A stretch of DNA of 64,000 nt from positions 385 to 64,384 of the forward strand of contig JBBRAK010000005.1 of NCBI GenBank assembly GCA_038206875.1, written 5' to 3'. Below, piece by piece: positions 2,879 through 56,725 of the stretch (its first letter is position 1; each line of letters starts with the position of its first letter). The stretch is from Candidatus Saccharimonadales bacterium (lineage in GTDB: Bacteria > Patescibacteriota > Saccharimonadia > Saccharimonadales > JBBQAJ01). Below the pieces are notes generated by a model. That model had not been told where the DNA came from, did not search any database, and was given only the letters and a program-made list of their open reading frames with translations. The translations under genes and the position numbers were made by a program.

Positions 2879-2887
2879 TTTAGCTTT

Positions 2888-3688: not shown

Positions 3689-3723
3689 GTTTAAAGTGTA
3701 CTATTTTTAGTAAAACTGTGGGA

Positions 3724-10548: not shown

Positions 10549-10549
10549 T

Positions 10550-11761: not shown

Positions 11762-11771
11762 ATTACTGTAC

Positions 11772-11780
11772 TGATATAAT
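11772..11780 (+). promoter_or_regulatory. Extended -10 element TGATATAAT between pilC and the pilin-like genes
   Basis: It matches TGnTATAAT and lies 11 nt before the ATG at 11792. Confidence 0.35.
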
Positions 11781-11791
11781 TAAACATAAGC

Positions 11792-15544: not shown

Positions 15545-15630
15545 TCAGTTTACCGAAATTCATTATCACCTTTAACTGTGGTATAGTTTAGTAAAGAATT
15601 TATGCTTAATGATGGGCAGCATATCGACGT

Positions 15631-17294: not shown

Positions 17295-17938
17295 CAAGTA
17301 AAAAAATATATTTTGCAATGTTGGGCGTGCTGGGTGTAATGAGTATTTTGGTAATATCCAGCGTATTCCTGGGTAATGGTTTGCTTGAAAAGCAGTCTAA
17401 AAAACTTGTTGGGCTTAAACTAGATAGTCAGGTTATAGAGTCTCAAGAAATTGCGCTAGCGCAAGCAAAAAAAGATATCGTTAAGTACAGTGAGTTGGAA
17501 ACAGTTGCCAAGCAGGTCGTTCCTCAAGACAAGGACCAGGCCAAAGCCACTAGAGAAATCGTGAACCTAGCCCAACTTTCGGGTGTAAAAATTTCTAGTA
17601 TTGGCTTTCCAACCTCAAGCCTAGGTCAACCTGCAGCAAAAACTACAGCCAAGAAAAGTGAAGATGATACTTCAAAAACCCCAGCACCAACAACGCCAGC
17701 CACTACCGAAACTCAAGTTAAGCCTGTTACAGGGATAAATGGACTCTTCCAAATGGATATTAACGTAACTTCCGATTCTACAAGCCCCGTGAGCTATGGA
17801 AAGTTGATTGATTTTCTAAGCAGACTAGAGAAAAATCGAAGGACTTCGCAGGTGACACAGATATCAATACAACCCGACGCAGCTAATCGATCCGTTTTGA
17901 ATTTTTCATTAACCATAACCTTATATATAAAACCATGA
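17291..17938 (+). CDS. pilO: PilO-like pilus assembly protein
   Basis: An in-frame ATG at 17291 overlaps the pilN stop (ATGA). It has a single TM (IYFAMLGVLGVMSILVISSVF), a coiled coil and a Pro/Thr-rich linker. Confidence 0.5.
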   Translation: MTSKKIYFAMLGVLGVMSILVISSVFLGNGLLEKQSKKLVGLKLDSQVIESQEIALAQAKKDIVKYSELETVAKQVVPQDKDQAKATREIVNLAQLSGVKISSIGFPTSSLGQPAAKTTAKKSEDDTSKTPAPTTPATTETQVKPVTGINGLFQMDINVTSDSTSPVSYGKLIDFLSRLEKNRRTSQVTQISIQPDAANRSVLNFSLTITLYIKP

Positions 17939-18234
17939 AATTTGATACAAAAAACATTTCCTCCAAACTACAAAGTTACTTGTCGATGCTTAAGAAATAC
18001 GTAGTTTTTGTTTTTGCAATAACTATACTTTTAATTTTTAGTTTCTTTGTAGTTAGGATAAATCAAATTAGTCGGTCTGAACCAACTGAGCAGCAGATTG
18101 AAGAAAAACTTCAGACAGTTCAACGACCCAGAATCGATCAAGCTGTGCTAGACAAAATCGAGGAACTGCAGGGTCAAAATATTGAAGTCAAATCCCTTTT
18201 TGACCAAGCCAGAAACAACCCTTTTAGCGAATAA
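17935..18234 (+). CDS. Small single-TM protein, last gene of the pilus operon
   Basis: It joins the upstream gene by an ATGA overlap and has the TM segment VVFVFAITILLIFSFFVV. Confidence 0.5.
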   Translation: MKFDTKNISSKLQSYLSMLKKYVVFVFAITILLIFSFFVVRINQISRSEPTEQQIEEKLQTVQRPRIDQAVLDKIEELQGQNIEVKSLFDQARNNPFSE

Positions 18235-24637: not shown

Positions 24638-25201
24638 CTATCTGATAGAGTATATTCCTCCTACAGAATTTCCGAGAATATTGGTGTTGTCACTTGAATT
24701 GACGATTGCGGAACCCGACGCAAAGTCGACTGCCGTTTTATTATATTTTTTCAAAACTTTAAAGCTTACTTTTGCGACCTCCTGTTTTCCAGTCAAACTG
24801 CTGACGCGTGCACGGGCTATTTGTATCGTGCCATTACTGGCTTTGGACTGGGCGGCTAAATCAAAGGCACTTGATGCAGTGTCAAAAGATAGAAACTGTA
24901 GTGCATTTGGATCATAGCTCAAGTTAGCCTGTACGGCGTTAGTTTGATTGACTAAGGAATCTTCGCTAATTGTAATAGTCAACGTTCCACCAACTGAAGA
25001 TGTCTGTTGTGCGGGTGTCAGAAATAGCCGAGCAGGACCAGTATTTTGGGTACTCTTAGGAGCTGAACGGGTTTGCAGAATAGCAAATGCACCGACGAGT
25101 ACAAATACTACAATAAACATTAATGACCGCAGATGTTTTAATTTAAAAAGTCTGCCCCGTTGTTTTGCTTTAGAATGTTTATTTTTATGCTGTTTGTTCA
25201 T
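24638..25201 (-). CDS. Signal-anchored single cohesin-like domain protein
   Basis: It has a basic N-terminus plus a TM helix. The domain LFLTPAQQTSSVGGTLTITI...NAVQANLSYDPNALQFLSFDTASSAFDL...GKQEVAKVSFKVLKK is clearly paralogous to the N-terminal domains of the 38130-39380 and 40463-42007 proteins. Confidence 0.65.
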   Translation of the reverse strand: MNKQHKNKHSKAKQRGRLFKLKHLRSLMFIVVFVLVGAFAILQTRSAPKSTQNTGPARLFLTPAQQTSSVGGTLTITISEDSLVNQTNAVQANLSYDPNALQFLSFDTASSAFDLAAQSKASNGTIQIARARVSSLTGKQEVAKVSFKVLKKYNKTAVDFASGSAIVNSSDNTNILGNSVGGIYSIR

Positions 25202-30976: not shown

Positions 30977-31003
30977 TTGGCACTATACACCATAGAGTGC
31001 TAG
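30977..31003. promoter_or_regulatory. CIRCE-like HrcA operator upstream of dnaJ
   Basis: On the dnaJ strand it reads CTAGCACTC-TATGGTGTA-TAGTGCCAA, against the consensus TTAGCACTC-N9-GAGTGCTAA. TATAAT (30964-30969) follows 7 nt downstream. The element overlaps the stop codon of the 971-aa gene. Confidence 0.6.
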
Positions 31004-33915
31004 TTTTTATCCGAATGTTTTTGCAACTGATATACTGCGAGTCCAATCAAAAAAGTGGCTAAAACAGTGAGTGCTGCCCATCCAAGATTTCGCAACTGAT
31101 ATAGTACCGCTCCTAGCGCTACATATAGCCCCCATTTTATAACTATTGGTTTGTGTATTGTCATGCCTAGCAACATAAAACCAATCTGTTCTAGCAGTAG
31201 CCACCATCCATATAATCCACCAGACGCTCCTGCCAGTGCTTGAAAAATGAGCGGTATAGTTGCACTTGCCAGCATGAGTATCAAATAATTGTCTGCGTTT
31301 GACGTTTCTCCCCTCTGTGTTCTCCAATATGCGTAGCCTGCAAATAAAGTCGCGGTAATATGACTATAGGCCTGGATTTCTCTAACGCCCGCGTAGTGCA
31401 AGAACCACATAAATCCTGCTACCACCACAGCACCGGCAAATTCGCGGTTGTCTTGTGTGGTTTCGCTCAAATAGTCATATAACAAATACCCGGCTATCAT
31501 TAACCCTAAAGGCATAGGCCATACCGTGAAGCCCACAAACAAAATCGAAAATGGTGCAATAAAGGCACACCATAATGAAGCAATTAATACGGATTTGTAT
31601 TTTTGATAGGTTTTTAAGTCCATAGCCAACAACCTGACCCCCAAATAACCAACGACCGAAAGCCCAGTGCTAAATAACAGAAAACTGTATAACCCGGTTT
31701 CAAGACTGGGTCGAATGGCACTCCATGCAGTAAATTGAGCCAAAATTGGAATAGTCACAAGTATATCAGCACGTTTTTCTACAAAACGACTAAGTAGCAT
31801 AACGATAGACAGCAATACCAGACTGATAAGAGTCGTATGTAGCTGTGAATTGTCAGAACTAAGAGACAAAACTATCGCCAATATAGCTGCAAAAATATAC
31901 CCAGCTACATACGACTGACTCGCAGACTTGACATAACTTGCCAGGGGTATGCGCGTAGATAAGAAAACCGAGCCCCGAGCGATGGCACGCGACAAAATCA
32001 GCCCTAACATGGCAACAACATATGCCCATGCATAACTTTCGATTTGCCAACTCGCAATTAAACCTATGTGGCCAAACCCTACTGGCAACAAAAGCCACAA
32101 TAATGTGCTTATCCACCTGTTTATATCCTGCCTGATCCACATAGTAAGCCCAATATTGTACGCGAGTGAAACAATTAATGATACCAGAAACAATCCCGGT
32201 TGCGACCATGCCACAACAAGTGGTGTGGCGATTAATATACCCCCTACGGTTGCCCAGGAGTTTTTATCATCAACAAACGCGAGCACTAAGGTAGTTATCG
32301 CTACAACTGCAGAAACCTGAAACGCTACACTTGGGTCTACGAATAGCGCGAAAACAAGCACAAAAATAGCACTTATTAGATACATGGTACGTGCGGTCAT
32401 TACCCAATCTGAAAGTTTGTCATCAAATCCGTGCGCTAGCATAACTGCAAAATGTATTAGGAGTGTAGCCAACAATAACAGCGTCTGCTGTCTAATATCT
32501 AGCTTATGGACCGCAACATATTGACCAAAAATTACTGGCAGAGACATCCAGGCAACAACAGCCATGCCATAAGCATCCGCTCGCTTCTGACGCAACCATA
32601 TTACTAGGGCAATCGCAGTAAGTGCAACTACTGTTCCAAAAAATAAACTGGGGTGACCTGCTGCAAAAACTATACTCGTACCCGAAGAAAGTAACAGTAC
32701 GTTTGCGTAGTTTTTGCCTATTTCTGTGGTAGATTTCAAATACCACAATCCAAAAATCTGTATAAAGTTCAGTGCAACTAGTATTTCGACGGTCGCGGTT
32801 GTACTACTCGTAACTGAGTATACCAAGCAAGTAATGCCCGCAAGTACTGCAATATGACTTACGAGGAAATTATTGTCTCGGTATGTGTCATTTGTGCGCC
32901 ACGCTTCAAGTGCGTAATACAAACTAGCTAGGATTAGCGAAACCCCCAATTGTCCAAAGCCCTGCTGTGATACTAAAACGGCCGAAACTAGAACGGAAAG
33001 AGGTAAAAATAATTGTCCACTATTACGCGAAGATTCTTGAAGTTCCGGCCAAAAACCTTTCCATTTACTGACTAACTGAAAACATATTCCAACTAGAGCC
33101 ATTGCCCAGCCAAAATAATAAACTGGGGCATTTGAGATGGATATTCCAGATTCAAACAACGACAAAAATGTGAAAATAAATATATAATTAATTAGTGGCT
33201 TGCGAAGCTTTATCAGTGCGTGTGCATATAACATCATTGATAAGATTGATGTCGCAAACCAAACTTCTCTAGCTTGATTCATGAACACATAGTTGTATGA
33301 TGCTAAACCTACCAACGGCATTGTTGCTATTCCAATTCCAGCAAATGCCAGTCCTGCCGGTCTGAGCTTTGGTTTGTTTTGGAACAACCAAATCCCCCCG
33401 GAATACATAACTAACGTAACCAGCCCGACCGCTAGAGTTCTTAATACTCCATTTGCTTGGCCAAATGCAACGAACAATCCTACAGAAGCTACAAACAAAA
33501 AAGCTCCAAAATACAGCAATAGGGTCGCGTTGTCTAGTGGAGCAGAGTCCGCTTTTTGTTTATTAGTCTTTAGCTCTGATACTGAGCCGACTGTCTGTGG
33601 ACTATTTCGGGATAAAATTGAAGTTTTGCGTGGTTCCGAGTCGTTTGTTTCATCAGTTAAATCTCCTGTTACGGACGTGTAATTTTCATATTTTCCTATT
33701 GGCAGTCCTCTGGCTTTTAGGTCAGAAAGCATAGTATCTATTAAATTTTTCTGATCTTTGTTTTTGGTTTTGGCCCTGTAGCCTGCTATGAATAATGCCC
33801 ATTCAATATTTCTCTGCTCTAATTCATTGGTTTGGACATTGCCTGGTGAATTCGATTTTCGTTTGGATAAATTCCACAGCAATACAACAAGACCGATAAT
33901 AATCAGTAGTTCCAT
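31000..33915 (-). CDS. Very large polytopic membrane protein (971 aa, more than 25 predicted TM); possibly DUF2339-like
   Basis: The SD AGAGGA lies 8 nt upstream. It has an N-terminal TM, a soluble region of about 120 aa, and then an almost continuous run of hydrophobic helices. The family assignment is tentative. Confidence 0.7.
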   Translation of the reverse strand: MELLIIIGLVVLLWNLSKRKSNSPGNVQTNELEQRNIEWALFIAGYRAKTKNKDQKNLIDTMLSDLKARGLPIGKYENYTSVTGDLTDETNDSEPRKTSILSRNSPQTVGSVSELKTNKQKADSAPLDNATLLLYFGAFLFVASVGLFVAFGQANGVLRTLAVGLVTLVMYSGGIWLFQNKPKLRPAGLAFAGIGIATMPLVGLASYNYVFMNQAREVWFATSILSMMLYAHALIKLRKPLINYIFIFTFLSLFESGISISNAPVYYFGWAMALVGICFQLVSKWKGFWPELQESSRNSGQLFLPLSVLVSAVLVSQQGFGQLGVSLILASLYYALEAWRTNDTYRDNNFLVSHIAVLAGITCLVYSVTSSTTATVEILVALNFIQIFGLWYLKSTTEIGKNYANVLLLSSGTSIVFAAGHPSLFFGTVVALTAIALVIWLRQKRADAYGMAVVAWMSLPVIFGQYVAVHKLDIRQQTLLLLATLLIHFAVMLAHGFDDKLSDWVMTARTMYLISAIFVLVFALFVDPSVAFQVSAVVAITTLVLAFVDDKNSWATVGGILIATPLVVAWSQPGLFLVSLIVSLAYNIGLTMWIRQDINRWISTLLWLLLPVGFGHIGLIASWQIESYAWAYVVAMLGLILSRAIARGSVFLSTRIPLASYVKSASQSYVAGYIFAAILAIVLSLSSDNSQLHTTLISLVLLSIVMLLSRFVEKRADILVTIPILAQFTAWSAIRPSLETGLYSFLLFSTGLSVVGYLGVRLLAMDLKTYQKYKSVLIASLWCAFIAPFSILFVGFTVWPMPLGLMIAGYLLYDYLSETTQDNREFAGAVVVAGFMWFLHYAGVREIQAYSHITATLFAGYAYWRTQRGETSNADNYLILMLASATIPLIFQALAGASGGLYGWWLLLEQIGFMLLGMTIHKPIVIKWGLYVALGAVLYQLRNLGWAALTVLATFLIGLAVYQLQKHSDKN

Positions 33916-36451: not shown

Positions 36452-36934
36452 TTATTCCTCCTTTATTACTTTCTTGTTCTCCATTTTCACTTTTACCATG
36501 GCATGTCGGATTACTTGTTCGCCTAGTACGTATCCAGGCTGTAGTTCCTCGCAAACCACTTCAACATCGCCCTTGCCTTCTTCCATATGAATTGCTTCGT
36601 GAAGATGGGGATTAAACACCTCACCCACAGTCTTTATTCTTGCAACACCTATGTCCAGTAAAGTTTTTTCAAATTGTTTGACTACACCTTGCACGCCTCT
36701 GACGTAGTCGTTGCCAACCAATTCTTTAGGTACATGCTTGAGAGAACGCTCCAGGTTATCGATTGCTGGCAAAAGCTCACTTATCACATTGGCTTTGACC
36801 ATATTCCGAAGTTCGCCAATCTGCTGTTCGTGCCTACGGCGCATGTTCTCAGCATCTGCCCTCTCTTGCTTTAATGCATTCGTAAGCTCTTCCATTTCTG
36901 TTCGTGGGTGCTGAGGTTTGGTGCTCTTAGACAT
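36452..36934 (-). CDS. grpE: Nucleotide exchange factor GrpE
   Basis: It has a GrpE coiled coil plus a beta domain (FNPHLHEAI...[16 protein letters not shown]) and lies between hrcA and dnaK. Confidence 0.93.
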
Positions 36935-37178
36935 GTTTTTTTACCCCATCTGCAAAAAAATTGTTTATTTCAAATGCCGTCATCAGCGCAAGAGTCGCTA
37001 GAGGACTTGCAGAATCCCAAGATGCTACGATTCCTTCCGCACCTACCCGGGTCCTAGCGGTTGTTATAGCAATGTCGTCACCAGCTCTAACAGAGGAGTC
37101 GCATACTCTGACTAGTCCTTCGAAATCAGGATAAGTCTCACCTATTGTTTCAAATACTTGTCTTGATACTTTACTCAT
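36927..37178 (-). CDS. Hypothetical 83-aa protein wedged between hrcA and grpE
   Basis: It overlaps both neighbours by 8 nt. No family was recognised. Confidence 0.4.
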   Translation of the reverse strand: MSKVSRQVFETIGETYPDFEGLVRVCDSSVRAGDDIAITTARTRVGAEGIVASWDSASPLATLALMTAFEINNFFADGVKKHV

Positions 37179-37899: not shown

Positions 37900-37929
37900 A
37901 TTATACTAAAGCTGGCACTCCTGTGTCAA
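37900..37929 (-). promoter_or_regulatory. hrcA operon promoter TTGACA-N18-TATAAT
   Basis: On the minus strand TTGACA (37924-37929) lies inside the spacer of the distal CIRCE, and TATAAT is at 37900-37905. Confidence 0.6.
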
Positions 37930-37938
37930 GAGTGCCAG
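37912..37938. promoter_or_regulatory. Distal CIRCE operator (perfect palindrome)
   Basis: CTGGCACTC-CTGTGTCAA-GAGTGCCAG keeps the GCACTC-N9-GAGTGC core identical to the CIRCE consensus. Confidence 0.75.
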
Positions 37939-38129: not shown

Positions 38130-39380
38130 TTACTTGTCGCCGTCACCCGACCACACAATTGGTTTTTTGGAAGTAACACCCTCGCCTGCATTAGGTAAGA
38201 CCGTTTGACCAGACTCTGACTTTTGAGATTGTAGGCTTGGCTGAACGCTCGGGGGGGTTGTTTCTGCAGGTGACTTGAATGTGTTAGGTGATTTGTTTGG
38301 TTGATCTGGAAAATGATTCTTGTGAAAAAGTCTTTCGGCTCGAAATTTTCTATACCAAGCTCTAAAAAGCAGAAGCAGTATGATAATTCCAAAGAAACCG
38401 ATTATTGGAAGTACATAAACTAATATGTTCTTTTTAGGTGCGACGTTAACAGCAAATTCTTGTACTGTATAAGGGTCTCCGGGGGTGTCGTTCACAGTCA
38501 CACTGGCGAGCACCCTTCCCTTGCCATCTTTTTCTTCAGTTATATCGTAGGTGCCTGGTTTAATATTTACAAAACTAGCGATTCCGTTATCGTCAGAAAC
38601 AGCAGACTGTGCACCTATATATACTGTTTTTCCAACCACCGGATTGCCTTTTTTGTCCAAAATTTTGATGGCAACAAGATATCCTGGTTTTTCAACGGTG
38701 TCTTGTGCGGGTGTAGCAGGATCAGCTGTAGTGGGTGATGGCTTAGTTGAGGTTGAAGGGGTTGAGGTTGAAGGGGTTGAGGTTGTGGGTTTAGTTGGAG
38801 GAGATGTTGCTGGTGGAGTTGATGGTGGAGTTTCAGGTGATGTTAGAGTATATGTGCCTCCGGCGGTAGCACCATTCCATACATTTTGTCCATCAGAAGG
38901 ACGAACCATGGCACTACTTGATGCAAATGTAATTGCCGTGGAGCCAGAACCAACTAGAACTTTGAAGCTAACATCTGCAACTTTATTGGTACCTGTTAGG
39001 TTGCTACTGTGAGCACAGCCAATCTTTACACTACCACCACCCCCGCTCGTCGAGCAGTAAAGCGTAAAGGCAGACGCGGATTTATCAACACTGATAAATT
39101 CAAGTTGGCTGGTGTCGTAGTTTAAATCCGCTTCCACGGCGTTGATAGCATCAGTTGAAGTGGAATTAACCGTAACTTTTAGAGTGCTGTCTTTCAGATA
39201 ACTCCCGCTTGCAGGTGTCAAGGTCAGTTGTCCACTTCCAGCGGCACTTACGCTACTCAAACCTACGACAGCCAAAAATAGCGTTGTCAAAGAAGTAAGC
39301 GATACAAGCTTGGACATAAGACGCTTAGGGCTAAATGAGCTTTTGGGAATATTATTAATCATTGTTGAAATTTCCTTCAT
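38130..39380 (-). CDS. Surface protein: signal peptide, cohesin-like domain, PT-rich linker, CarboxypepD_reg-like domain, C-terminal TM anchor and tail
   Basis: An ATG at 39380 follows the upstream stop by 2 nt; the ORF-track start at 39395 is a TTG. Domain evidence: cohesin-like LTLTPASGSYLKDSTLKVTV...NAVEADLNYDTSQLEFISVD...NKVADVSFKVL; linker PPSTPPATSPPTKPTTSTPSTSTPSTSTKPSPTT; KKGNPVVGKTVYIG...IKPGTYDI; TM ILVYVLPIIGFFGIIILLLLF. Confidence 0.7.
   Translation of the reverse strand: MKEISTMINNIPKSSFSPKRLMSKLVSLTSLTTLFLAVVGLSSVSAAGSGQLTLTPASGSYLKDSTLKVTVNSTSTDAINAVEADLNYDTSQLEFISVDKSASAFTLYCSTSGGGGSVKIGCAHSSNLTGTNKVADVSFKVLVGSGSTAITFASSSAMVRPSDGQNVWNGATAGGTYTLTSPETPPSTPPATSPPTKPTTSTPSTSTPSTSTKPSPTTADPATPAQDTVEKPGYLVAIKILDKKGNPVVGKTVYIGAQSAVSDDNGIASFVNIKPGTYDITEEKDGKGRVLASVTVNDTPGDPYTVQEFAVNVAPKKNILVYVLPIIGFFGIIILLLLFRAWYRKFRAERLFHKNHFPDQPNKSPNTFKSPAETTPPSVQPSLQSQKSESGQTVLPNAGEGVTSKKPIVWSGDGDK
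38746..38790 (-). repeat. 15-nt tandem repeat x3 (third copy imperfect) in the PT linker
   Basis: The + strand reads GTTGAGGTTGAAGGG GTTGAGGTTGAAGGG GTTGAGGTTGTGGGT, which encodes the repeating STPST units. Confidence 0.8.
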
Positions 39381-39382
39381 TT

Positions 39383-40324
39383 TTATAATCCCCAATTAGC
39401 AGCTAAAATTGATAAGTCGAATATGTTCACCTGGGTGTCATTGTTTAAATCACCTTGGGATCTTGTTTTTGATGTTCCGCCCCAATTAGCTGCGAGTATG
39501 GAAAGGTCGAAGATGTTTACCGAATTATCCCCGTTGACGTCTCCAGCTTTGGATGGAGGTGGAGGCGCTTGACTAACAGTAATCGAGACTGATGAGGCTC
39601 TATTGTTTCCGGCGGCATCATAGGCTGTTGCCGATACAACATACGGACCATCATTAACGGATGTACTGTTCCAGTTGTAGCTGTAGGGACTAGTGGTATC
39701 AGTATTCACTATTGTTGCGCCAACTCTAAACTCAACTTTAGTGACACCAACGTCATCGCTAGCTGTAGCAGTCAACGGCACAGTTCCACTTACGGTTGCG
39801 TTGTTGGCAGGCGCAGTTAGAGAAACAGACGGTTGAGTGGTATCGCCAGGGTTTGAGCAATTTGTCCCAACGCCAGTAGGCACACATGTAGTGTCTGCTG
39901 TTAATATAACTAAATCTAAACTTACACTTGGCTCACGTCCAATCATTTTAAAAGTATGGTTCCCTGTGGATAAAGTTAGGTTAGTCTTGGTAGCACTATT
40001 GCCACTTTGATAATCCACCCATGTCCAAGTGTTTGCTGTAATTGCACTATCCCCAACTGTTATACAACTTCCGCCATCCACCTCTAGAAGATAGGAATTG
40101 TTCGTGGAGTCCGGAGCTTTTATACGACTCCAAACTCTATAAGTACTGGCGACTGGGACGTTAACTGTTATAGTTGAACTACCTAGGTCTGTGGGCTGAG
40201 TAGCACAAGCAGCATTTACTTTTTTTGAGTTGATACCAAGAAATAGTATTAAAAACAGTAGTCCGACGAAAAACATTAGTGGCGAGGTTACCATTCCTAA
40301 AAGTTGTTTCATGAATTTATCCAT
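39383..40324 (-). CDS. Secreted protein: CBM-like beta-sandwich, Ig-like domain, C-terminal double dockerin
   Basis: It has a signal/TM segment (LMFFVGLLFLILFLGI), a CBM-like pattern (YRVWSRIKAP..NSYLLEVDGG..NTWTWVDY..GNHTFKMIGREPSVSLDLVILT) and an Ig-like domain (TVSGTVPLTATASDDVGVTKVEFRV...ATAYDAAGN). The dockerin is GDVNGDNSVNIFDLSILAANWG ... GDLNNDTQVNIFDLSILAANWG. Confidence 0.7.
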   Translation of the reverse strand: MDKFMKQLLGMVTSPLMFFVGLLFLILFLGINSKKVNAACATQPTDLGSSTITVNVPVASTYRVWSRIKAPDSTNNSYLLEVDGGSCITVGDSAITANTWTWVDYQSGNSATKTNLTLSTGNHTFKMIGREPSVSLDLVILTADTTCVPTGVGTNCSNPGDTTQPSVSLTAPANNATVSGTVPLTATASDDVGVTKVEFRVGATIVNTDTTSPYSYNWNSTSVNDGPYVVSATAYDAAGNNRASSVSITVSQAPPPPSKAGDVNGDNSVNIFDLSILAANWGGTSKTRSQGDLNNDTQVNIFDLSILAANWGL

Positions 40325-40462
40325 AAGGGTCTGTTTATGTTGTTTGTGGAGTTCATTTGCCTAAAATTTAATTATTACTAGTTTACTCCCTAAATTAGCA
40401 TAAGGTCAATTAAATTCTTCGTGATACAATAAGCTTAATTAAAAATAGCGGAAAAGGTACAT

Positions 40463-42007
40463 ATGAAAAAACTTCGCAATTCCAATAGAAAAAATATCAA
40501 AAAAAGTCTACTTTCCAAGTTCGGACGAAAATCAGGCAACCAAAGTACGTCTGTACTACTAATCGCAATCCTGTTATTTGCCCTGGTAGGCGCAAGTTTT
40601 CTTGTTAGGTCGTTTGCTGCTAGCGCAACTCTGTATCTAACCCCAGCAACATCAACTATTAGCCTAGGTTCGACTTTTAGCGTGACAATACGAGAGAACA
40701 GTAACACGGAAGTAATAAACGCTGTTCAGGCAAATTTAACCTATAACGCAACTATGCTTCAGTATTTGAGTACAGACACAGCGACCAGCGCATTCGACCT
40801 ATCGGGATCTTCTACCGGAGGAAATGGAAGCGTAAGTGTTGCCAGAGCAAAGTCTGGCACTAGCCTAACTGGAGATCAAATCGTTGCTGTGGTAAGTTTC
40901 AAAGTTATTGGCACAGGCAGTGTTACTGTAGGCTTTGCACCGAATTCTTCACTAGTTCGTACATCGGATACGGCAAATGTTTTATCAGTGACTACTCCTG
41001 CTACCTATACTCTGAACGATTCAACCGCCCCAAGCGTTCCAACCGGGCTGGTTGCGGGGACGAGGACGGTTAACTCGATTGCCTTTAGCTGGACTGCCTC
41101 AACGGACAACAAAGCAGTTACAGGATATAAAGTATATAGAAACGGCACCCTCGTAAACGGCAATGTCACGCCCACTAGCTTTACTGACTCTGGTCTTGCA
41201 CCTAACACCAGTTATTCATATACGGTTTCGGCTTTTGATGCAGCTGCAAATACGTCCGCAGTATCTTCAGCTGTTGCAATTTCGACTTTGCCTGATACCA
41301 CCGCACCAAGTGTTCCCGCCGGTTTAACAGCGGGCACAAAAACGGTTAACTCGATTGCCTTCAGCTGGACTGCATCTACCGACAATGTTTCGGTTACTGG
41401 TTATAAAATATACAGGAGTGGTGTTCAGATAGGAACAACAGCTTCCACGAATTATAACCAAACTGGACTTACTCCCAATACCAGCTATTCATACACCGTT
41501 GCAGCGTATGATGGCGTCGGTAACACATCTGCGCAGACAAGCCCGCTAGTTACAAGTACACTAGCCGATACTTCAGCGCCCAGCGCCCCGCAGGGTCTGA
41601 GCTCTCCTTCGCAGGCAACAACTAGCATTGCACTAGCTTGGAATGCATCTACGGATAACGTAGGGGTTGCTGGCTACAATATTTTACGAAACGGTACCAA
41701 AGTCAACACCAGTACGTCTACTAGCTTTACTGACACAAGTTTGGCTCAAGGTGCCCAGTACACATATACAGTAACTGCCTATGATTTGGCAGGAAATACA
41801 TCGGCTGTAAGCAACTCTCTAACAACTACCACCAAGGTTAAAGCTGGAGATGTCAATAGTGATGGAGTTGTGAACATTTTTGACCTGTCAATCTTGGCAA
41901 ATAATTTTGGTCAGTCCGGCAAAACATTTGCACAAGGCGACTTAAATAATGATGGAGTAGTGAACATTTTTGACCTGTCAATCTTGGCGGCCAACTGGGC
42001 TACTTAA
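40463..42007 (+). CDS. Secreted protein: cohesin-like domain, three FN3 modules, C-terminal double dockerin
   Basis: It has a signal anchor (VLLIAILLFALVGASFLV), a cohesin-like domain (LYLTPATSTISLGSTFSVTI...NAVQANLTYNATMLQYLSTD...DQIVAVVSFKVI), three copies of (APSVP.GL...SI.F.W.ASTDN..V.GY..YR.G......T.....GL.PNTSYSYTV.A.D..GNTSA), and the dockerin GDVNSDGVVNIFDLSILANNFG ... GDLNNDGVVNIFDLSILAANW. Confidence 0.75.
   Translation: MKKLRNSNRKNIKKSLLSKFGRKSGNQSTSVLLIAILLFALVGASFLVRSFAASATLYLTPATSTISLGSTFSVTIRENSNTEVINAVQANLTYNATMLQYLSTDTATSAFDLSGSSTGGNGSVSVARAKSGTSLTGDQIVAVVSFKVIGTGSVTVGFAPNSSLVRTSDTANVLSVTTPATYTLNDSTAPSVPTGLVAGTRTVNSIAFSWTASTDNKAVTGYKVYRNGTLVNGNVTPTSFTDSGLAPNTSYSYTVSAFDAAANTSAVSSAVAISTLPDTTAPSVPAGLTAGTKTVNSIAFSWTASTDNVSVTGYKIYRSGVQIGTTASTNYNQTGLTPNTSYSYTVAAYDGVGNTSAQTSPLVTSTLADTSAPSAPQGLSSPSQATTSIALAWNASTDNVGVAGYNILRNGTKVNTSTSTSFTDTSLAQGAQYTYTVTAYDLAGNTSAVSNSLTTTTKVKAGDVNSDGVVNIFDLSILANNFGQSGKTFAQGDLNNDGVVNIFDLSILAANWAT
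41021..41835 (+). repeat. Three tandem ~273-nt FN3-encoding modules
   Basis: The modules align at both protein and nucleotide level, for example TTAACTCGATTGCCTTTAGCTGGACTGCCTC versus TTAACTCGATTGCCTTCAGCTGGACTGCATC. Confidence 0.7.
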
Positions 42008-50473: not shown

Positions 50474-53400
50474 TTAAATTCCGACAAATTCTTGCCATGA
50501 TTTTGGCTCACGTACTGCTCCGTTTGTTTCACCCAAACACTTCAAAAGAAGTCGTCCCGTTTCTGCATTACTAAGCAGTGGTATATGGTTGTCGATGGCA
50601 AGTCGTCTCATAATATAGCCGTCAGTAGTTTGCTCTTCCAAAGACGACGGAACGTTTATCATAAGAGCAATTTTATGATTTGCGATTGCGGTTGAAGCGC
50701 TGGGTTCTTTTTGTTCAGAAAATTTGTTTAGTAAGGAAGATTTTACGCCATACTTATTGAAGAATTTCTGAGTCCCAGTAGTTGTATAAATTTTCCATCC
50801 TTGGCTTGCGATTATCGACACCACGTCGACAAATTTAAACTTCTGATCATCTGGTAAACTCAAAAATAATGACTTGCCATTAATTTTCTGGTCTGTAGCT
50901 AACCACGAGGAATAAAACGCATCCCCGATATCTTCACCTAAACAAACAACTTCTCCGGTTGATGCCATTTCTACGCCAGCTACTGGGTCGGCCCCTTTTA
51001 GTCTGTTATATGAAAATTGTGGGTTTTTTACTCCTACATGATCTAACTCGAAAGTTTGATAAGTTTTATCATTTTTTATACCAAGCATGGCTTCGGTAGC
51101 AATTTCAATAAAATTGTAGTTGCTGACTTTTGAAACGAACGGAAATGATCTAGATGCCCGAACGTTGCATTCAATTACTTTTAGTTCGTTGTCTTTGGCA
51201 ATAAATTGAACATTAAATGGGCCGGTGATTTTTAGATTTTGGATTATTTGTTTAGTAATATTTTTTGCTTGTCTTACGGTTTCCAGATACAACCTCTGAG
51301 CAGGAAAAACAACCGTCGCATCACCGCTATGCACACCTGCGTTTTCGATATGTTCCGATATGGCGTAGATGATTAACTTGCCGTTTTGTGCAACACCATC
51401 TATTTCTAGCTCTTTGGCATTTGTAATGAATTGTGAAATAACTACTGGATGATCCGGTGACAATTGCGTGGCATCACTAAGATATTGTTTTAATTCCTGT
51501 TCGTTATTCACTACGTTCATTGCTCCGCCCGACAATACATATGAAGGTCGGATTAGAACTGGGTAGCCGACTTTTTTGGCAAACTTTTTGGCGCTTGAAA
51601 GTGTAGTCACCTCATCCCAATCAGGCTGGTCAACACCAATCTTTCCTAACATGGAAGAAAATTTTTGTCTGTCTTCGGCTCTGTCTATTTCTTCTGGACT
51701 TGTGCCAAGGATTGGATATTTCAGTTTGTGTAGTGGCAGGGCTAAATTGTTTGCTATCTGACCTCCCACAGAAACAATAATGGATTTTGGATTTTCAAAA
51801 TCTGCAATATCACGAATCCTCTCCTGGGTAAGTTCCTCGAAATATAACCTGTCCGATCTATCGAAATCCGTAGATACTGTTTCGGGATTTGAGTTGACGA
51901 TAATCGTTGGCAGTCGATGTTTGCGCAAGGTTTTTGCTGTGTTTACTGCGCACCAATCAAATTCGACAGATGATCCAATACAGTATGGGCCAGAACCGAG
52001 TACAATAATCGGTTTTTTGAGAGGTTCCACGTCATGACTACTGCCGTGATAGGTTGTATATAAATAATTCGTTGTGGCATCAAATTCACCAGCTAACGTG
52101 TCTATTTGTTTTATGGTTGGCACGATGCCGTAGTTTTGACGTTTTTTTCTAACCGCATTTTCATTTGAACCTACAAGCTTGGCAATCACTTTGTCTGAAA
52201 AACCTTTTTGTTTTATTTCCAACAAAAATTGTTTAGAAAGTTTACTTTTTTCAATCTTTTTTGAAGTTTCTACTATATCCTCCAAATGGTACAAAAACCA
52301 TTTATCTATTTTGGACATGTTATGAATTTTCTCGACACTAATTCCACTACGCAAAGCCTTTTCTATTGCAAAAATTCGTTTATCTGTAGGAGTAGCGATT
52401 AGTTTGAGCGAATTTTTCATGGGGAAAGGATGGTCTGTTAAGCCACTGGCTCCTATATTTAACATCCTGAGTGCTTTTTGTAGTGCTTCAGGAAAGCTTC
52501 TGCCAAGCGCCATGACTTCGCCGACACTTTTCATTTCTGTTCCTATTGAATGTTCGCTGGCTTTTAGTTTACCCAAATCCCAACGGGGGATTTTGACAGC
52601 CACATAGTCCAGAGCAGGTTCAAAAAACGCGGAGGTTGTTCCTGTAACTGAGTTTTTAAGTTCATAGAGTCTGTAACCAAGCATCAATTTACCAGCCACA
52701 AACGCAAGCGGATAGCCAGTCGCTTTAGACGCAAGTGCACTAGACCGACTTAGTCTGGCATTGACTTCAATCACCCTGTAGTCACCATTATTTGGGTTGA
52801 GGGCATATTGTATGTTGCACTCTCCAATAATCCCGAGATGATTGATGGTTTTTATAGCCACTTCTCGAAGTCTGTGATATTCCTCGTTTGTCATGGTTTG
52901 GGAAGGAGCAATCACAATACTCTCTCCAGTGTGAACGCCCATTGGATCAAAATTTTCCATGTTGCAGACGGTTATTGTATTGCCATCTTTGTCCCGCACC
53001 ACTTCATATTCGACTTCTTTCCAGCCGGTTAAGTACTCTTCAATAAGAACCTGGCCGACCACACCTAGAACCTCGTTAACCTTTATGACTAGTTCTTTTT
53101 CATTATCTACTCGTCCTGAACCTAAACCTCCCAAACTATAAGCCGAACGAAGCATTATAGGATAGCCGATCTTTTTGGCTGCTTTTTTGGCGTCTTTTAA
53201 GTTTCTCGCAGCAAAGCTTCTAGCTGTTTTGGTTCCAATTTTTGACAAGGCAATTTTGAACAAATCACGATCTTCAGTGGTTTTTATAACTTCTACAGGA
53301 GTTCCCAAAACTTGAATATTTAGTTTTTTAAATACGCCCATGTCATGCAAAGCCAGTCCTAAATTAAGTGCGGTTTGACCTCCAAAACTAAGGGTTACAG

Positions 53401-53647
53401 CGTCTGGTTTTTCTTTTTCTAAAATTTTGGTCACTGTATCTATGTTTAGAGGTTCGAAATATACTTTGTCAGCCATATCAGAGTCTGTTTGAACAGTTGC
53501 AATGTTCGGGTTAATCAAAACGATGTATATTTTTTCTTCTTTGAGAGCTTTGATTGCTTGCGAGCCAGAATAATCAAACTCCCCTGCTTGGCCAATTCTA
53601 AGCCCGCCAGAACCGAGGATTACAACTTTTTTAATCTGTTTTTTCAA
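50474..53647 (-). CDS. carB: Carbamoyl-phosphate synthase large subunit
   Basis: It has duplicated ATP-grasp halves, an oligomerisation domain and an MGS-like C-terminal domain. The 1057-aa length is canonical. Confidence 0.98.
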   Translation of the reverse strand: MKKQIKKVVILGSGGLRIGQAGEFDYSGSQAIKALKEEKIYIVLINPNIATVQTDSDMADKVYFEPLNIDTVTKILEKEKPDAVTLSFGGQTALNLGLALHDMGVFKKLNIQVLGTPVEVIKTTEDRDLFKIALSKIGTKTARSFAARNLKDAKKAAKKIGYPIMLRSAYSLGGLGSGRVDNEKELVIKVNEVLGVVGQVLIEEYLTGWKEVEYEVVRDKDGNTITVCNMENFDPMGVHTGESIVIAPSQTMTNEEYHRLREVAIKTINHLGIIGECNIQYALNPNNGDYRVIEVNARLSRSSALASKATGYPLAFVAGKLMLGYRLYELKNSVTGTTSAFFEPALDYVAVKIPRWDLGKLKASEHSIGTEMKSVGEVMALGRSFPEALQKALRMLNIGASGLTDHPFPMKNSLKLIATPTDKRIFAIEKALRSGISVEKIHNMSKIDKWFLYHLEDIVETSKKIEKSKLSKQFLLEIKQKGFSDKVIAKLVGSNENAVRKKRQNYGIVPTIKQIDTLAGEFDATTNYLYTTYHGSSHDVEPLKKPIIVLGSGPYCIGSSVEFDWCAVNTAKTLRKHRLPTIIVNSNPETVSTDFDRSDRLYFEELTQERIRDIADFENPKSIIVSVGGQIANNLALPLHKLKYPILGTSPEEIDRAEDRQKFSSMLGKIGVDQPDWDEVTTLSSAKKFAKKVGYPVLIRPSYVLSGGAMNVVNNEQELKQYLSDATQLSPDHPVVISQFITNAKELEIDGVAQNGKLIIYAISEHIENAGVHSGDATVVFPAQRLYLETVRQAKNITKQIIQNLKITGPFNVQFIAKDNELKVIECNVRASRSFPFVSKVSNYNFIEIATEAMLGIKNDKTYQTFELDHVGVKNPQFSYNRLKGADPVAGVEMASTGEVVCLGEDIGDAFYSSWLATDQKINGKSLFLSLPDDQKFKFVDVVSIIASQGWKIYTTTGTQKFFNKYGVKSSLLNKFSEQKEPSASTAIANHKIALMINVPSSLEEQTTDGYIMRRLAIDNHIPLLSNAETGRLLLKCLGETNGAVREPKSWQEFVGI

Positions 53648-54792
53648 GTGCTAATGCTTTCGTAAAATTTTTCAAACATCCAACCAGTGTCAGTTGGTCC
53701 AGGGCTTGCTTCAGGATGAAATTGAACGGAAAAATACGGTTTAGTTTTGTGCGCAATTCCTTCTACGGAATTATCATTCAGGTTTCTAAAAGAAACTCTC
53801 CATCCCGCAGGCAGTGTTTTCTCATCTATTGCGTAACTGTGATTTTGGCTGGTAATGTAACATTTTTCCGTCAAGTCATCCATGCATGGCTGATTATGGC
53901 CGCGATGTCCAAAAAGCAGTTTGTAAGTTTTTGCACCCGCTGCCAAGCCCAAAATTTGGCTACCCAAGCAGATTCCGAATATCGGTTTACCTATTGCTAA
54001 AGCCTTTTTAACATTTTCGATAGTTGGTTTGTAGTCGGTAGGGTCTCCGGGTCCGTTTGAAAGTAAAACACCATCATATTCATCTTTCGTAAAATCGTAC
54101 CCTGCTGGCACTTTTTTAATTCTGGCTGGAAGCTTCAGTAAACTCTGAAGTATGTTTTCTTTGGACCCACAATCAACTAAAATTATGGTTTTTTGTTGAT
54201 TTGCGTTATAAATTTTTGGTTTAAAGTCTTCGGGAATATTCACAACTGGCTTGAGCGTGCTAGTGTCAATTTGCACATCACTTATAGCACCCATCATTGA
54301 TCCACTGGTTCGTAAATGTTTTGTAACCGCCCTGGTGTCTACGTCCATAACGATTGGAATTTTCTGTGATTTGAGCCAGTCCAAAAACGAACTATCGGCT
54401 TTGGTATGGCTCCACGACATTGCAGCCGAACTAACTACAACTCCACTTACTTGGATTTTTTCTGATTCAACAGAAGCTAAATCTACGCCGTAGTTTCCTA
54501 TCATTGGATAAGTAAAAACTAGAATTTGATTGGAGTAAGATGGGTCTGTTAGTGACTCTACATACCCAGTCATACCGGTGTTGAAAACCACTTCTCCAAC
54601 AAAACTTCCTGTTTGCCAAGGAGGAACAATTCCGGAAAATTTTATGCCGTCACTTAAATATAAATAGGCAAATTTTTTGGTAAAAAAAATGCTCCCATTG
54701 GAGCTTTTGACGGATTGATTACTGATTTTTTTGGGCTTTTCTAGCATAGGCATACTAGGACTTGAGTATAGCATATTATTATAGAATTGCAA
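53644..54792 (-). CDS. carA: Carbamoyl-phosphate synthase small subunit (start codon uncertain)
   Basis: It has a CPSase small-chain domain (LYLSDGIKFSGI...TGMTGYVESLTDPSY) and a GATase triad (GICLGSQIL, HRGHNQP, QFHPE). The ORF-track start is a TTG, and about 40 extra N-terminal residues are questionable. It overlaps carB by 4 nt. Confidence 0.88.
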   Translation of the reverse strand: MQFYNNMLYSSPSMPMLEKPKKISNQSVKSSNGSIFFTKKFAYLYLSDGIKFSGIVPPWQTGSFVGEVVFNTGMTGYVESLTDPSYSNQILVFTYPMIGNYGVDLASVESEKIQVSGVVVSSAAMSWSHTKADSSFLDWLKSQKIPIVMDVDTRAVTKHLRTSGSMMGAISDVQIDTSTLKPVVNIPEDFKPKIYNANQQKTIILVDCGSKENILQSLLKLPARIKKVPAGYDFTKDEYDGVLLSNGPGDPTDYKPTIENVKKALAIGKPIFGICLGSQILGLAAGAKTYKLLFGHRGHNQPCMDDLTEKCYITSQNHSYAIDEKTLPAGWRVSFRNLNDNSVEGIAHKTKPYFSVQFHPEASPGPTDTGWMFEKFYESIST

Positions 54793-54856
54793 AAACTGTT
54801 TTCGCTCAGTACTGGTGCATGTGTTTCAGGACTGCTGTTTCTGATATCATGAGTCA

Positions 54857-56725
54857 ATGAAGAGCGACGCAGCAAAAACAGAGCCAACCGTAGTCGTACT
54901 AGATGCCGGAGGACAATATGTGGATCTGGTTAGACGAGCCTGTGAACGTATTGGCTATCCAACAGTTGTACTACCGCTAAATACTCCCGCTCAAGAATTA
55001 AAGTCGAAATATAAAGCAATAATCATTTCTGGCAGTCCTGCAAGTTCACAGGAAATCAACGCCCCCATGCCAGACCCAGAAGTTTGGAATTTGAACATTC
55101 CAATTCTGGGAATTTGTTATGGGCTACATGCTATGGTTACAAATTTTGGTGGAGAAATTATTCGTGGCAACTCTCGTCAAGATGGTCGAGCTACAACAAT
55201 AGTCGACAACAAACACCCCCTGTTCAAAAATACCAAAACAAACTTTAGTGCGTTGTTTACGCATGGAAATTTTGTATCTAAAGTACCGACTGGGTTTGAA
55301 ACGTTAGGTAAACACAAACTACCAGACGGAACTACTGTTTATTCCTCAATAGCAAAAAACAATTTGTTGGCAGTGCAGTTTCACCCCGAAGTTTTTGACG
55401 ATACACCTGAGGGATATCAAGTTTTCAAAAATTTCTTGCATGACATTTCTGGAATAGAACCAAACAAACAATTTCTTGAACAACAAACAGATACTTTAGT
55501 AGCAAACCTTCGCAGAAAAATTAATTCAACGGCTAAAAATCGACACGTAATTGCTTTTGTTAGTGGCGGAGTTGATTCGTCGGTTACTGCCACTCTCGCT
55601 GCAACAGAAATTCCAGAAAATTATCTGCATGCTTATTATATAGATAACGGGCTCATGAGAAACGAAGACGACAAGGTCATTGAAATTCTTCGTCACACTG
55701 GGGTAAAGGTGAATAAAATTGACTCTTCAAAAGAATTTTTGGAGCCACTAGAAAACGTTATAGATCCTCAAACCAAAAGACAAATAATTGGCAAAGTTTT
55801 TGTAGAAGTTCAGGGCAAAATAATTTCCGAACTGGGACTAGATGAAGCCTTGCTATTGCAAGGGACAAATGCCGCTGACCGGATTGAAAGTGGCTATAGC
55901 AAAGCTGGCAATGAAACTGCCGTTATAAAAACCCACCACAACCAAGTAAAAGAAATTCAAGATTTGAAGTCTAGGGGACTTTTAATTGAGCCACTTGATG
56001 ATTTGTTCAAAGACGAAGTCCGTGCAGTTGGCAAACACTTGGGCTTACCAGACGAAGTTACACAGCGCCAGCCATTCCCCGGGCCTGGCCTTGCCGTCAG
56101 GATTCTTTGTGCGACTGGCAAAGAATCAATTGCTGATATTACTGCGGTCGAAAACCAAATCAAATCTCATATAAATGTCGAAGACGCGGTGGTTAAGATA
56201 TTGCCGATTAGAAACGTCGGCGTAGGTGGTGATGAACGCTCGCACAAAGCAGCTGTTGCACTGCAAATAAATACAACTTGGGAAAATCTTGCAAATCTTG
56301 CTACAGAATTACCAGCCAAATTTAGCAATGATATAAATCGGGTCATTGTGGCACTTGGCAAACAATCCATAGCCAACTTCACCGTGACTCCAACATTTAT
56401 AAACAAAGACACTGTTGCTCAGTTGCAACATGCAGACAAAATTGTCTGGGAAGAAATGCGTGCTTTTGGTATATCAAACACAATTAGCCAATTTCCAGTA
56501 GTTCTTTTGCCTTTGTCGTTTGATAGTCCAGGCGAGCGCACAATTGTACTTCGACCGGTAACTACTTCTACGTTCATGACCGTACGGCCAATGATACCCG
56601 GCAAAGACATACCTATAGATTTTATTCAAAAAACAACCGAACGAATACTGGACGAAGTGCCAGGTATTAGCCAGGTTTTTATAGACCTAACACCCAAACC
56701 CCCCGCCACCACGGAGTGGGAATAA
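54857..56725 (+). CDS. guaA: GMP synthase (glutamine-hydrolysing), long form with a duplicated C-terminal subdomain
   Basis: It has a GATase domain (GICYG, FHPEV), the PP-loop FVSGGVDSSV, PFPGPGLAVR, and the C-terminal PKPPATTEWE. Confidence 0.9.
   Translation: MKSDAAKTEPTVVVLDAGGQYVDLVRRACERIGYPTVVLPLNTPAQELKSKYKAIIISGSPASSQEINAPMPDPEVWNLNIPILGICYGLHAMVTNFGGEIIRGNSRQDGRATTIVDNKHPLFKNTKTNFSALFTHGNFVSKVPTGFETLGKHKLPDGTTVYSSIAKNNLLAVQFHPEVFDDTPEGYQVFKNFLHDISGIEPNKQFLEQQTDTLVANLRRKINSTAKNRHVIAFVSGGVDSSVTATLAATEIPENYLHAYYIDNGLMRNEDDKVIEILRHTGVKVNKIDSSKEFLEPLENVIDPQTKRQIIGKVFVEVQGKIISELGLDEALLLQGTNAADRIESGYSKAGNETAVIKTHHNQVKEIQDLKSRGLLIEPLDDLFKDEVRAVGKHLGLPDEVTQRQPFPGPGLAVRILCATGKESIADITAVENQIKSHINVEDAVVKILPIRNVGVGGDERSHKAAVALQINTTWENLANLATELPAKFSNDINRVIVALGKQSIANFTVTPTFINKDTVAQLQHADKIVWEEMRAFGISNTISQFPVVLLPLSFDSPGERTIVLRPVTTSTFMTVRPMIPGKDIPIDFIQKTTERILDEVPGISQVFIDLTPKPPATTEWE

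Follow-up and report, generated by a model that had tools for sequence, protein, structure and literature searches.

A 64-kb stretch of DNA from a Candidatus Saccharimonadales bacterium (the whole of this stretch is called the window below) carries three adjacent genes, designated here A, B and C, whose products combine cohesin and dockerin modules with predicted export signals, as well as an unlinked paralog, gene D, encoding a stand-alone cohesin. An earlier note, made from the sequence letters, had described the three adjacent genes as a possible anchor, adaptor and cargo of a tiered surface assembly in a reduced bacterium. The source is indeed a reduced candidate phyla radiation (CPR) bacterium, namely of Saccharimonadales (source-named homologs are labelled Candidatus Saccharimonadales or Saccharibacteria), and the comparative analysis presented here argues that the locus is, with fair probability, a non-cellulosomal, membrane-anchored cohesin-dockerin surface-display module of this lineage. 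All three open reading frames (ORFs) were confirmed at the coordinates and strands below, and a six-frame scan of the window yielded no cohesin or dockerin ORF beyond A-D:

38130-39380, minus strand: gene A, 416 amino acids (aa); predicted membrane-anchored cohesin protein, candidate anchor
39383-40324, minus strand: gene B, 313 aa; predicted secreted protein with a CBM-like domain (CBM, carbohydrate-binding module), a Big_7 domain and a dockerin, candidate cargo or lectin
40325-40462, 138 bp: divergent intergenic region between B and C
40463-42007, plus strand: gene C, 514 aa; predicted secreted protein with a cohesin, three FN3 modules and a dockerin, candidate adaptor or extender
24638-25201, minus strand: gene D, 187 aa; stand-alone cohesin, unlinked paralog

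Gene B lies upstream of gene A, with a gap of 2 bp between the stop of the former and the start of the latter. The product of gene A is composed of the following parts (all on the minus strand):

39243-39380 (residues 1-46): Sec-type signal peptide, likely cleaved between VSA and AGS
38832-39242 (residues 47-183): type-I-like cohesin domain (Pfam, profile search, structure prediction with Foldseek)
38694-38831 (residues 184-229): Pro/Thr/Ser-rich linker (by sequence)
38445-38693 (residues 230-312): prealbumin-like/CarboxypepD_reg-like beta-sandwich, membrane-proximal
38364-38426 (residues 319-339): predicted transmembrane helix, ILVYVLPIIGFFGIIILLLLF
38133-38363 (residues 340-416): predicted cytoplasmic tail, 77 aa, disordered

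This series of parts, from signal peptide to tail, had been proposed in the earlier note and was recovered by Pfam and by an AlphaFold2 (AF2) model of the whole protein, for which 26 sequences were used; the tail, previously put at about 85 aa, comprises 77 aa after the transmembrane helix. The model places a hydrophobic helix at residues 18-40, and the small residues at -3 and -1 make cleavage between VSA and AGS likely, residues A46-A47-G48-S49 being invariant among orthologs. The cohesin domain scores above the Pfam cut-off (PF00963, 32.2 vs. 24.1 bits) and is modelled with a predicted local distance difference test (pLDDT) of 91-98 as the nine-stranded flattened beta-sandwich (jelly-roll) typical of cohesins. 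Foldseek comparison of this model with PDB returned almost only cohesins at the top: type-I and non-cellulosomal cohesins (including 6kgf, 2xdh, 5nrm, 4ums, 2jh2 and 2vo8) match with target-normalised template-modelling scores (TM-scores) of 0.70-0.78 and root-mean-square deviations of 2.2-3.0 Å, vs. TM-scores of about 0.5 for type-II cohesins. The highest sequence identity among the best structural matches is 22% (Archaeoglobus fulgidus cohesin, 2xdh), and when A was compared as a single sequence with the PDB sequences by phmmer, no cohesin was found, the second domain matching 6hif_Y weakly. The linker (pLDDT 45-53, no secondary structure) differs in length and composition among orthologs. 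It is followed by a seven-stranded domain (pLDDT about 90) that matches the SpaA prealbumin-like fold (28.8 bits, cut-off 23.1) and, under the cut-off, CarboxypepD_reg (25.3 bits, cut-off 32.3). A long helix at residues 320-354 of the model corresponds to the predicted transmembrane segment ILVYVLPIIGFFGIIILLLLF, behind which comes the Lys/Arg-rich RAWYRKFRAERLFHK, in agreement with the positive-inside rule. The tail itself is conserved in the closest relative (L002) only.

The product of gene C (plus strand) joins a cohesin and a dockerin in one chain, i.e., the architecture of adaptor scaffoldins, which is kept in all full-length orthologs:

40619-41026 (residues 53-188): cohesin of the adaptor-type clade (Pfam on the isolated domain)
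41027-41827 (residues 189-455): three FN3 modules (Pfam fn3, three stretches, 90.6 bits, E 7.6e-26)
41837-42004 (residues 459-514): dockerin with two near-identical repeats (Dockerin_1, 36.8 bits, cut-off 22.9)

Pfam applied to full-length C did not list Cohesin; scanned alone, the N-terminal domain reaches 28.6 bits, and the cohesin of D reaches 33.0 bits (cut-off 24.1 for both). The three cohesins share 41-46% identity (C vs. A, 46%; D vs. A, 41%), from which a cohesin fold is inferred for C and D as well. The trio thus contains two cohesins and the window, with D, three, correcting the earlier count of three cohesins plus the paralog. A profile of 30 Saccharibacteria cohesins, searched against PDB sequences, matches solved cohesins over their full length (6kg8, 2vn5 and 1g1k, E about 1e-6 to 5e-6), among them Clostridium acetobutylicum CipA (6kg8, E 9.5e-7), C. 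cellulolyticum CipC (2vn5, 1g1k) and the non-cellulosomal C. perfringens NagJ. The assignment of the N-terminal domains to cohesins, proposed in the earlier note, is therefore upheld by Pfam, by profile search and by predicted fold. In a neighbor-joining tree (without bootstrap) the C-type cohesins fall together in a clade of their own, separate from the anchor type, and therefore both paralogs appear to have been kept over the divergence of these genomes. In the same tree the D cohesin groups with the single-cohesin anchors of multi-cohesin scaffoldin loci and not with A or C. The N-terminus of D is long and basic, with a hydrophobic segment and no visible AxA-type (small-x-small) cleavage motif; D may therefore stay anchored in the membrane by its N-terminus, and it is a possible third dockerin receptor.

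The product of gene B (minus strand) combines three domains:

39839-40210 (residues 39-162): CBM6/CBM35/CBM36-like beta-jelly-roll (AF2 and Foldseek)
39629-39832 (residues 165-232): Big_7 bacterial Ig domain (Pfam, 73.1 bits, E 3e-20)
39386-39553 (residues 258-313): dockerin with two near-identical F-hand repeats

The N-terminal domain has no Pfam match above cut-off and no match to a CBM model (the best, GH115_C at E 0.044, is below cut-off), so that the CBM-like call of the earlier note holds at the level of predicted fold rather than as membership of a curated CBM family. The model of residues 38-162 has a pLDDT of 89.4 and a predicted TM-score of 0.81. Its top Foldseek matches in PDB are CBM35 (3wnn), CBM6 (2cdp, 8j3x), CBM36 (1w0n) and CBM35 (2vzp, 2w3j), with probability 1.0 and TM-scores of 0.5-0.58, and the same three families dominate the top 50. 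Four cysteines of this domain are conserved (C3, C110 and C119 are invariant, C50 nearly so). The Big_7 domain has PDB sequence matches 3pdd and 9x9r, and the dockerin (Dockerin_1 PF00404, 31.8 bits, cut-off 22.9) matches PDB dockerin 2y3n_B with E 2e-4 and, weakly, the dockerin in 2jnk/2ozn.

An exhaustive search with A of 1.84 billion representatives outlined a large protein family, widespread in Saccharibacteria and unannotated: 2,512 proteins at E<=1e-3, falling to 1,001 at E<=1e-10 and to 117 clusters at E<=1e-30, with no functional name given by the sources and members of 10 representative clusters almost nameless. (A word-indexed homolog search yielded 39 matches swamped by the low-complexity Pro/Thr linker and was not used for family size.) Each of the best 150 representatives has at least one cohesin and only 3 have a dockerin motif; a hydrophobic helix follows the last cohesin in 135 of these 150, the Lys plus Arg content after that helix is 3.6 vs. 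1.9 per 15 residues, and the median tail is 72 aa.

Gene neighborhoods provide a second line of evidence. Full-length orthologs of C are common (53-71% identity), and an A ortholog adjoins C in all nine genomes with a readable neighborhood, a count that leaves aside the C ortholog of L005, which sits at a contig end. The trio with the same flanks occurs in the two closest relatives (L002 and L034); in six further genomes (L003/L004, L006/L007, L013, L035, L036 and a JGI contig) A and C stand in tandem in this order, overlapping by a few bases, in unrelated neighborhoods. Gene B is kept at the trio position in L002 and L034 only, and in L011, which is more distant, a B homolog is again found immediately upstream of the anchor. 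The case that would have refuted the earlier note, namely that the three genes never stay together in relatives, was thus not observed, although the trio as a whole is limited to close relatives: the conserved unit is the A-C pair and, more generally, a dockerin gene directly beside a transmembrane-anchored cohesin gene, an arrangement widespread in Saccharibacteria. When species-representative genomes were scanned with aligned A orthologs, 26 loci came up, of which 20 have the label Saccharibacteria or Saccharimonadales. In the loci used for the adjacency count, all picked for having a cohesin gene, 16 of the 18 dockerin-only genes have a cohesin gene no more than 300 bp away, vs. 1.7 expected under random placement in the same loci.

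Two observations on these loci may be added. Saccharibacteria-type clusters of anchored cohesin and dockerin genes are also present on contigs labelled as other phyla (L021, Gammaproteobacteria, 177 kb; L024, Limnocylindrales, 14 kb), which could reflect mis-binning or horizontal transfer. Beta-helix (pectate-lyase-fold) proteins of about 696 aa recur beside the A-C pair (L002, 11733-13823; JGI 3300050821 contig, 2379-4469; L035, 1-655), the L035 copy having a faint dockerin match.

The third line of evidence comes from the dockerins themselves. The four repeats of B and C (DVNGDNSVNIFDLSILAANW, DLNNDTQVNIFDLSILAANW, DVNSDGVVNIFDLSILANNF and DLNNDGVVNIFDLSILAANW) all read D-x-N-x-D-x-x-V-N-x-x-D followed by LSILA(A/N)N(W/F), with starts 30 residues apart and canonical Asp/Asn residues at Ca-loop positions 1, 3, 5, 9 and 12. 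The double-dockerin call and the repeat sequences given in the earlier note therefore stand, both on the motif and on Dockerin_1 scores above cut-off, and the possibility that these are generic EF-hand repeats is set aside, EF-hand models reaching 10-11 bits vs. cut-offs of about 25. Positions 10-11 of the loop/helix are the classical specificity positions of type-I dockerins. The dockerins of a given genome have the same residues at these two positions, which change from one genome to the next: IF here, AI/AY in L002, II in L006, VF in L003 and L008, AL in L015, EI in L020 and LL in L023. The same pattern is seen over the whole module, with a mean identity of 83% between dockerins of different proteins within one locus (n=8) vs. 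50% (maximum 73%) between genomes (n=268). Recent gene conversion was considered as a source of the likeness between the B and C dockerins and rejected: 41 of 56 residues are identical, with 62% nucleotide identity and different codons at 22 of 40 conserved degenerate positions. Since the synonymous sites have diverged, it is selection on the protein that keeps the two dockerins alike. Shared, genome-specific and selected recognition-helix residues would be hard to explain unless the dockerin partner were encoded inside the same genome. Given their near-identity, the dockerins of B and C probably bind a receptor of the same type, the A cohesin being the likeliest, and B may therefore sit directly on A. 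The symmetry of the two repeats inside each module (73-77% identical, as in B and C) suggests dual-mode cohesin binding.

From domain identities, predicted topology, linkage, co-conservation and selection on the dockerins, we infer binding events, pairing specificities, a tier order and a biological target that might be arranged as follows. Protein A would be exported and lose its signal peptide, and its C-terminal helix would keep it in the cytoplasmic membrane with the tail inside. The prealbumin-like domain and the roughly 46-residue Pro/Thr linker would then hold the cohesin outward, probably through or above the cell wall. Secreted B and C would each bind a cell-borne cohesin via a C-terminal Ca2+-dependent dockerin, B presenting a CBM6/35-like glycan-binding domain on an Ig stalk and C presenting a second cohesin on the tip of a spacer of three FN3 modules. 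Through this second cohesin, one more dockerin protein (B, a further C, or one encoded elsewhere) could be recruited and the assembly extended outward. Across Saccharibacteria, the same anchor would hold other cargo, including polysaccharide deacetylases of the CE4 family. Such a system would likely serve to display proteins that bind and modify glycans, with which the cell attaches to, or processes, the surface of a host or a particle.

Several considerations weigh against this scheme and limit our confidence in it to the level stated at the outset. The predicted signal-peptide cleavage and membrane topology rest on simple rules and an AF2 helix. The structural match behind the CBM-like assignment of B is moderate (TM-scores of 0.5-0.58), and B is not conserved at the trio position beyond close relatives. 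The adjacency count covers loci that were picked for a cohesin gene. The A- and C-type cohesins, at 46% identity and in separate clades, may differ such that one of them does not bind these dockerins. The tier order (A binding C, C binding B) is not readable from the sequence, as the dockerins of B and C are near-identical. By the same token, C could self-associate if its own cohesin accepts the B/C dockerin type, an outcome that classical adaptor scaffoldins avoid by having two specificities.

Among the alternatives, the one that survives best, and that we still consider unlikely, is a reduced cellulosome-like nutrient system, in which hydrolases encoded elsewhere would be gathered on the surface, with B as a CBM targeting subunit and C as a small scaffoldin. 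The modules matched by the N-terminal domain of B (CBM6/35/36) are normally part of glycoside hydrolases, and comparable CPR genes were earlier read as serving complex-carbon degradation (PMC3812714). The dockerin cargo of related loci, which varies while the anchor stays, comprises Big_7 arrays, CARDB, FN3 and Polysacc_deac_1 with or without CBM_4_9; the beta-helix proteins mentioned above stand beside the pair, and in L035 there is a large protein with weak GH99 and weak dockerin matches. In L015 (6538-8037) and L020 (6271-7890), the gene immediately upstream of the transmembrane-anchored cohesin gene, abutting or overlapping it, codes for a CE4 polysaccharide deacetylase that has a dockerin at its C-terminus, and one of these two proteins also has CBM_4_9. 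Moreover, true scaffoldins do exist elsewhere in Saccharibacteria (L022, 7803-17228; L025, 7941-14576; L024, 7914-12063), including proteins of 1848 aa (six cohesins, a dockerin) and of about 1007 aa (three cohesins, a dockerin), with transmembrane-anchored proteins of one and two cohesins encoded after each; the dockerin repeats of these scaffoldins are asymmetric (36-50% identical) vs. symmetric in B and C. Nevertheless, in the locus considered here A, C and D have one cohesin each, which makes no multi-enzyme scaffold. B and C are the only dockerin carriers in the window and neither is catalytic, so that no dockerin-bearing glycoside hydrolase is encoded in the 64 kb, and Pfam found no SLH, LPXTG/sortase anchor or CBM3 match in A, B or C, A having a transmembrane helix instead. 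No glycoside-hydrolase Pfam domain was found in the trio-flanking genes either, in line with what the earlier note had observed. Cargo across loci consists mostly of Ig, FN3 and lectin-like modules, not enzymes, and the sole confident enzymes, the CE4 deacetylases (acting on peptidoglycan/chitin-type glycans), fit modification of a host wall at least equally well. Thus, surface display fits the parts better than cellulolysis does, as had been surmised from the sequence alone.

Next in order, and rather improbable, is the view that the cohesins and dockerins do not interact with each other, being structural or Ca2+-stabilised spacers or binding partners elsewhere (e.g., host surface molecules), with adjacency reflecting co-regulation. 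Cohesin-fold domains do occur in proteins without a known dockerin partner (TMEM132, PMC6030884), 9 of the 29 analysed cohesin loci have no dockerin gene within the flanks covered, and the supplementary tables on Southlakia epibionticum list an essential dockerin protein and no cohesin. This view is difficult to reconcile with the adjacency of 16 of 18 dockerin-only genes to a cohesin gene, with the persistence of A beside C in nine of nine genomes despite different neighborhoods, with recognition-helix residues that unrelated proteins of one genome have in common, that vary between genomes and that selection maintains, or with the canonical Ca-loop residues in all four repeats. The least probable of the three alternatives is that C self-polymerises into a head-to-tail non-covalent fibre rooted on A and capped by the CBM-bearing B (an analogue of a sortase-built pilus): its cohesin and dockerin in one chain with a rigid three-FN3 spacer (conserved in all C orthologs), the near-identical dockerins by which B could compete and terminate the chain, the translational coupling of the A-C pair in six genomes and the symmetric repeats suited to flexible dual-mode binding would all be in keeping with it, but acceptance of its own dockerin type by the C cohesin is an assumption, characterised adaptor scaffoldins keep cohesin and dockerin specificities distinct, and the separate C-type and A-type cohesin clades fit different specificities equally well.

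A comparison of the proposed surface-display module with known systems shows both likeness and substantial differences. Closest in their working are the anchoring and adaptor scaffoldins of cellulosomes (e.g., C. thermocellum SdbA, OlpB and OlpA; Acetivibrio cellulolyticus ScaB and ScaC; Ruminococcus flavefaciens ScaB and ScaE), in which, as predicted here from the genes, a cell-bound cohesin holds dockerin-tagged secreted proteins. Like adaptor scaffoldins, C joins a cohesin and a dockerin, the cohesin being type-I-like and the dockerins having two Ca-binding F-hand repeats. Unlike cellulosomal anchors, A has a C-terminal transmembrane helix with its cytoplasmic tail in place of SLH repeats or a sortase signal. 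Unlike cellulosomes, the locus has one cohesin per protein, no dockerin-bearing glycoside hydrolase or CBM3 in the window, and a CPR host with a small genome. Unlike the adaptor scaffoldins, B and C have the same dockerin type, so that a two-specificity hierarchy is not evident.

The non-cellulosomal pairs of C. perfringens (the cohesin of NagJ/GH84C and the dockerin of NagH; PDB 2ozn, 2jh2, 2w1n, 2vo8) are alike in that single cohesins and dockerins join secreted FN3/CBM proteins outside a cellulose context, and both the Saccharibacteria cohesin profile and the A model match the C. perfringens cohesins. Those modules differ from the present ones in sitting on large glycoside hydrolases and linking enzymes to each other, without a dedicated membrane-anchored cohesin receptor or a conserved anchor-adaptor gene pair. 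Archaeal systems (A. fulgidus, 2xdh; the scaffoldin-like proteins of anaerobic methanotrophic archaea (ANME), PMC9012536) share the combination of cohesin and dockerin in one chain and its occurrence in organisms that do not degrade cellulose, and for the ANME proteins, roles in the localisation of surface proteins and in the interaction between cells have been suggested (PMC9012536). They differ in lineage, anchoring and cargo (substrate-binding proteins of ATP-binding cassette transporters in ANME), and a gene for a transmembrane anchor beside a dockerin gene is not described there.

Within CPR, Kantor et al. (2013, PMC3812714) noted for SR1 a "dockerin-like protein" and a "cellulosome anchoring protein", and for OD1 a "cellulosome-related gene cluster", and SEML1_0315 of the cultivated saccharibacterium Southlakia epibionticum is an essential Ig-rich dockerin protein of the envelope, with no cohesin in the accompanying tables (PMC10633639). 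SEML1_0315 resembles the B-type and FN3-type cargo, and its importance in that organism speaks for the surface-display reading. The SR1, OD1 and S. epibionticum genes come from the superphylum to which the present locus belongs and share its domain families. These reports (PMC3812714, PMC10633639) are one-line annotations pointing to carbon degradation or glycan targeting; they name neither a cohesin partner nor an anchor architecture, and they describe no gene pair or pattern of specificity. Full-text searches on Saccharibacteria, Patescibacteria, TM7 or CPR with cohesin or dockerin returned no description of the A-family anchor or of the A-C pair. Overall, the domains are familiar and the function is a proposed one; the novelty lies in how the anchor is held, in the lineage, in the conservation of the A-C pair and in the connection with the surface biology of epibionts.

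The biological setting is one in which these parts could matter. The source organism is probably an epibiont, as attachment to host bacteria is the way of life of Saccharibacteria and of CPR bacteria at large. To our knowledge, the molecules with which these bacteria build their surface and hold the host are, type IV pili aside, largely unknown, and the locus offers a concrete parts list, i.e., a cohesin membrane receptor, an extender and a lectin-like cargo. Cohesin-dockerin biology would also gain a new mode of anchoring (a transmembrane helix plus cytoplasmic tail) and a new lineage, and probably a new purpose, in that the modules would serve surface display by an epibiont and not cellulose breakdown. 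The anchor family suggests where to seek the partner of the essential dockerin protein in a genetically tractable saccharibacterium, and single-cohesin/single-dockerin pairs with genome-specific recognition residues could serve as orthogonal connectors in protein engineering. A bolder version of the surface-display reading, which we regard as a long shot, would make the A anchor and its dockerin partners a general modular outer-surface system of Saccharibacteria, and perhaps of other monoderm CPR bacteria, in which the conserved receptor would non-covalently carry exchangeable lectins, extenders and cell-wall-modifying enzymes for host attachment and remodelling of the host envelope, with C as a polymerising fibre on A tipped by B and with the 70-80-aa tail coupling occupancy outside to the cell interior; if true, it would supply the missing receptor for the essential S. 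epibionticum dockerin protein.

On one side the trio is flanked by hrcA, grpE and dnaK, and on the other by a guanylate-kinase-like gene, DUF1761, lepA, murJ and ftsH; the window also includes ordinary housekeeping genes along with a type IV pilus ATPase cluster. In the spacer between B and C the only promoter candidate is a weak sigma-70-like TTGACC-18-TAAACT (40409-40380, minus strand), which is not above shuffle expectation; the promoter scan gave 10 matches vs. 9.2 expected from shuffles, and no promoter is claimed. A hairpin 3' of A, the sole hit of a terminator scan, was considered as a terminator of a B-A operon and rejected, as it overlaps a promoter upstream of hrcA. This inverted repeat, CTGGCACTC-N9-GAGTGCCAG (37900-37938, minus strand), overlaps a perfect TTGACA-18-TATAAT pair directly upstream of hrcA and therefore looks like a CIRCE/HrcA-type operator of the hrcA-grpE-dnaK heat-shock operon. 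A small ORF of 83-86 aa without a Pfam match is present between hrcA and grpE in the window (36927-37178, minus strand), in L002 (6662-6922) and in L034 (3-251). An ORF of 971 aa (31000-33915, minus strand), with no Pfam family at E<=1e-5, has a counterpart of equal length in L002 (310-3225), located between dnaJ and the dnaK region.

Further away in the window, the type IV pilus-like cluster (8734-18000, plus strand) begins with a PilB-type ATPase (T2SSE and MshEN domains, 8734-10548) followed by several large ORFs, of which one (11792-13363) has a weak CarboxypepD_reg-like match and another (13952-15544) has no Pfam match. The region 50474-56725 encodes the large and small subunits of carbamoyl-phosphate synthase and GMP synthase, a biosynthetic capacity exceeding what is expected of a Saccharibacteria genome.

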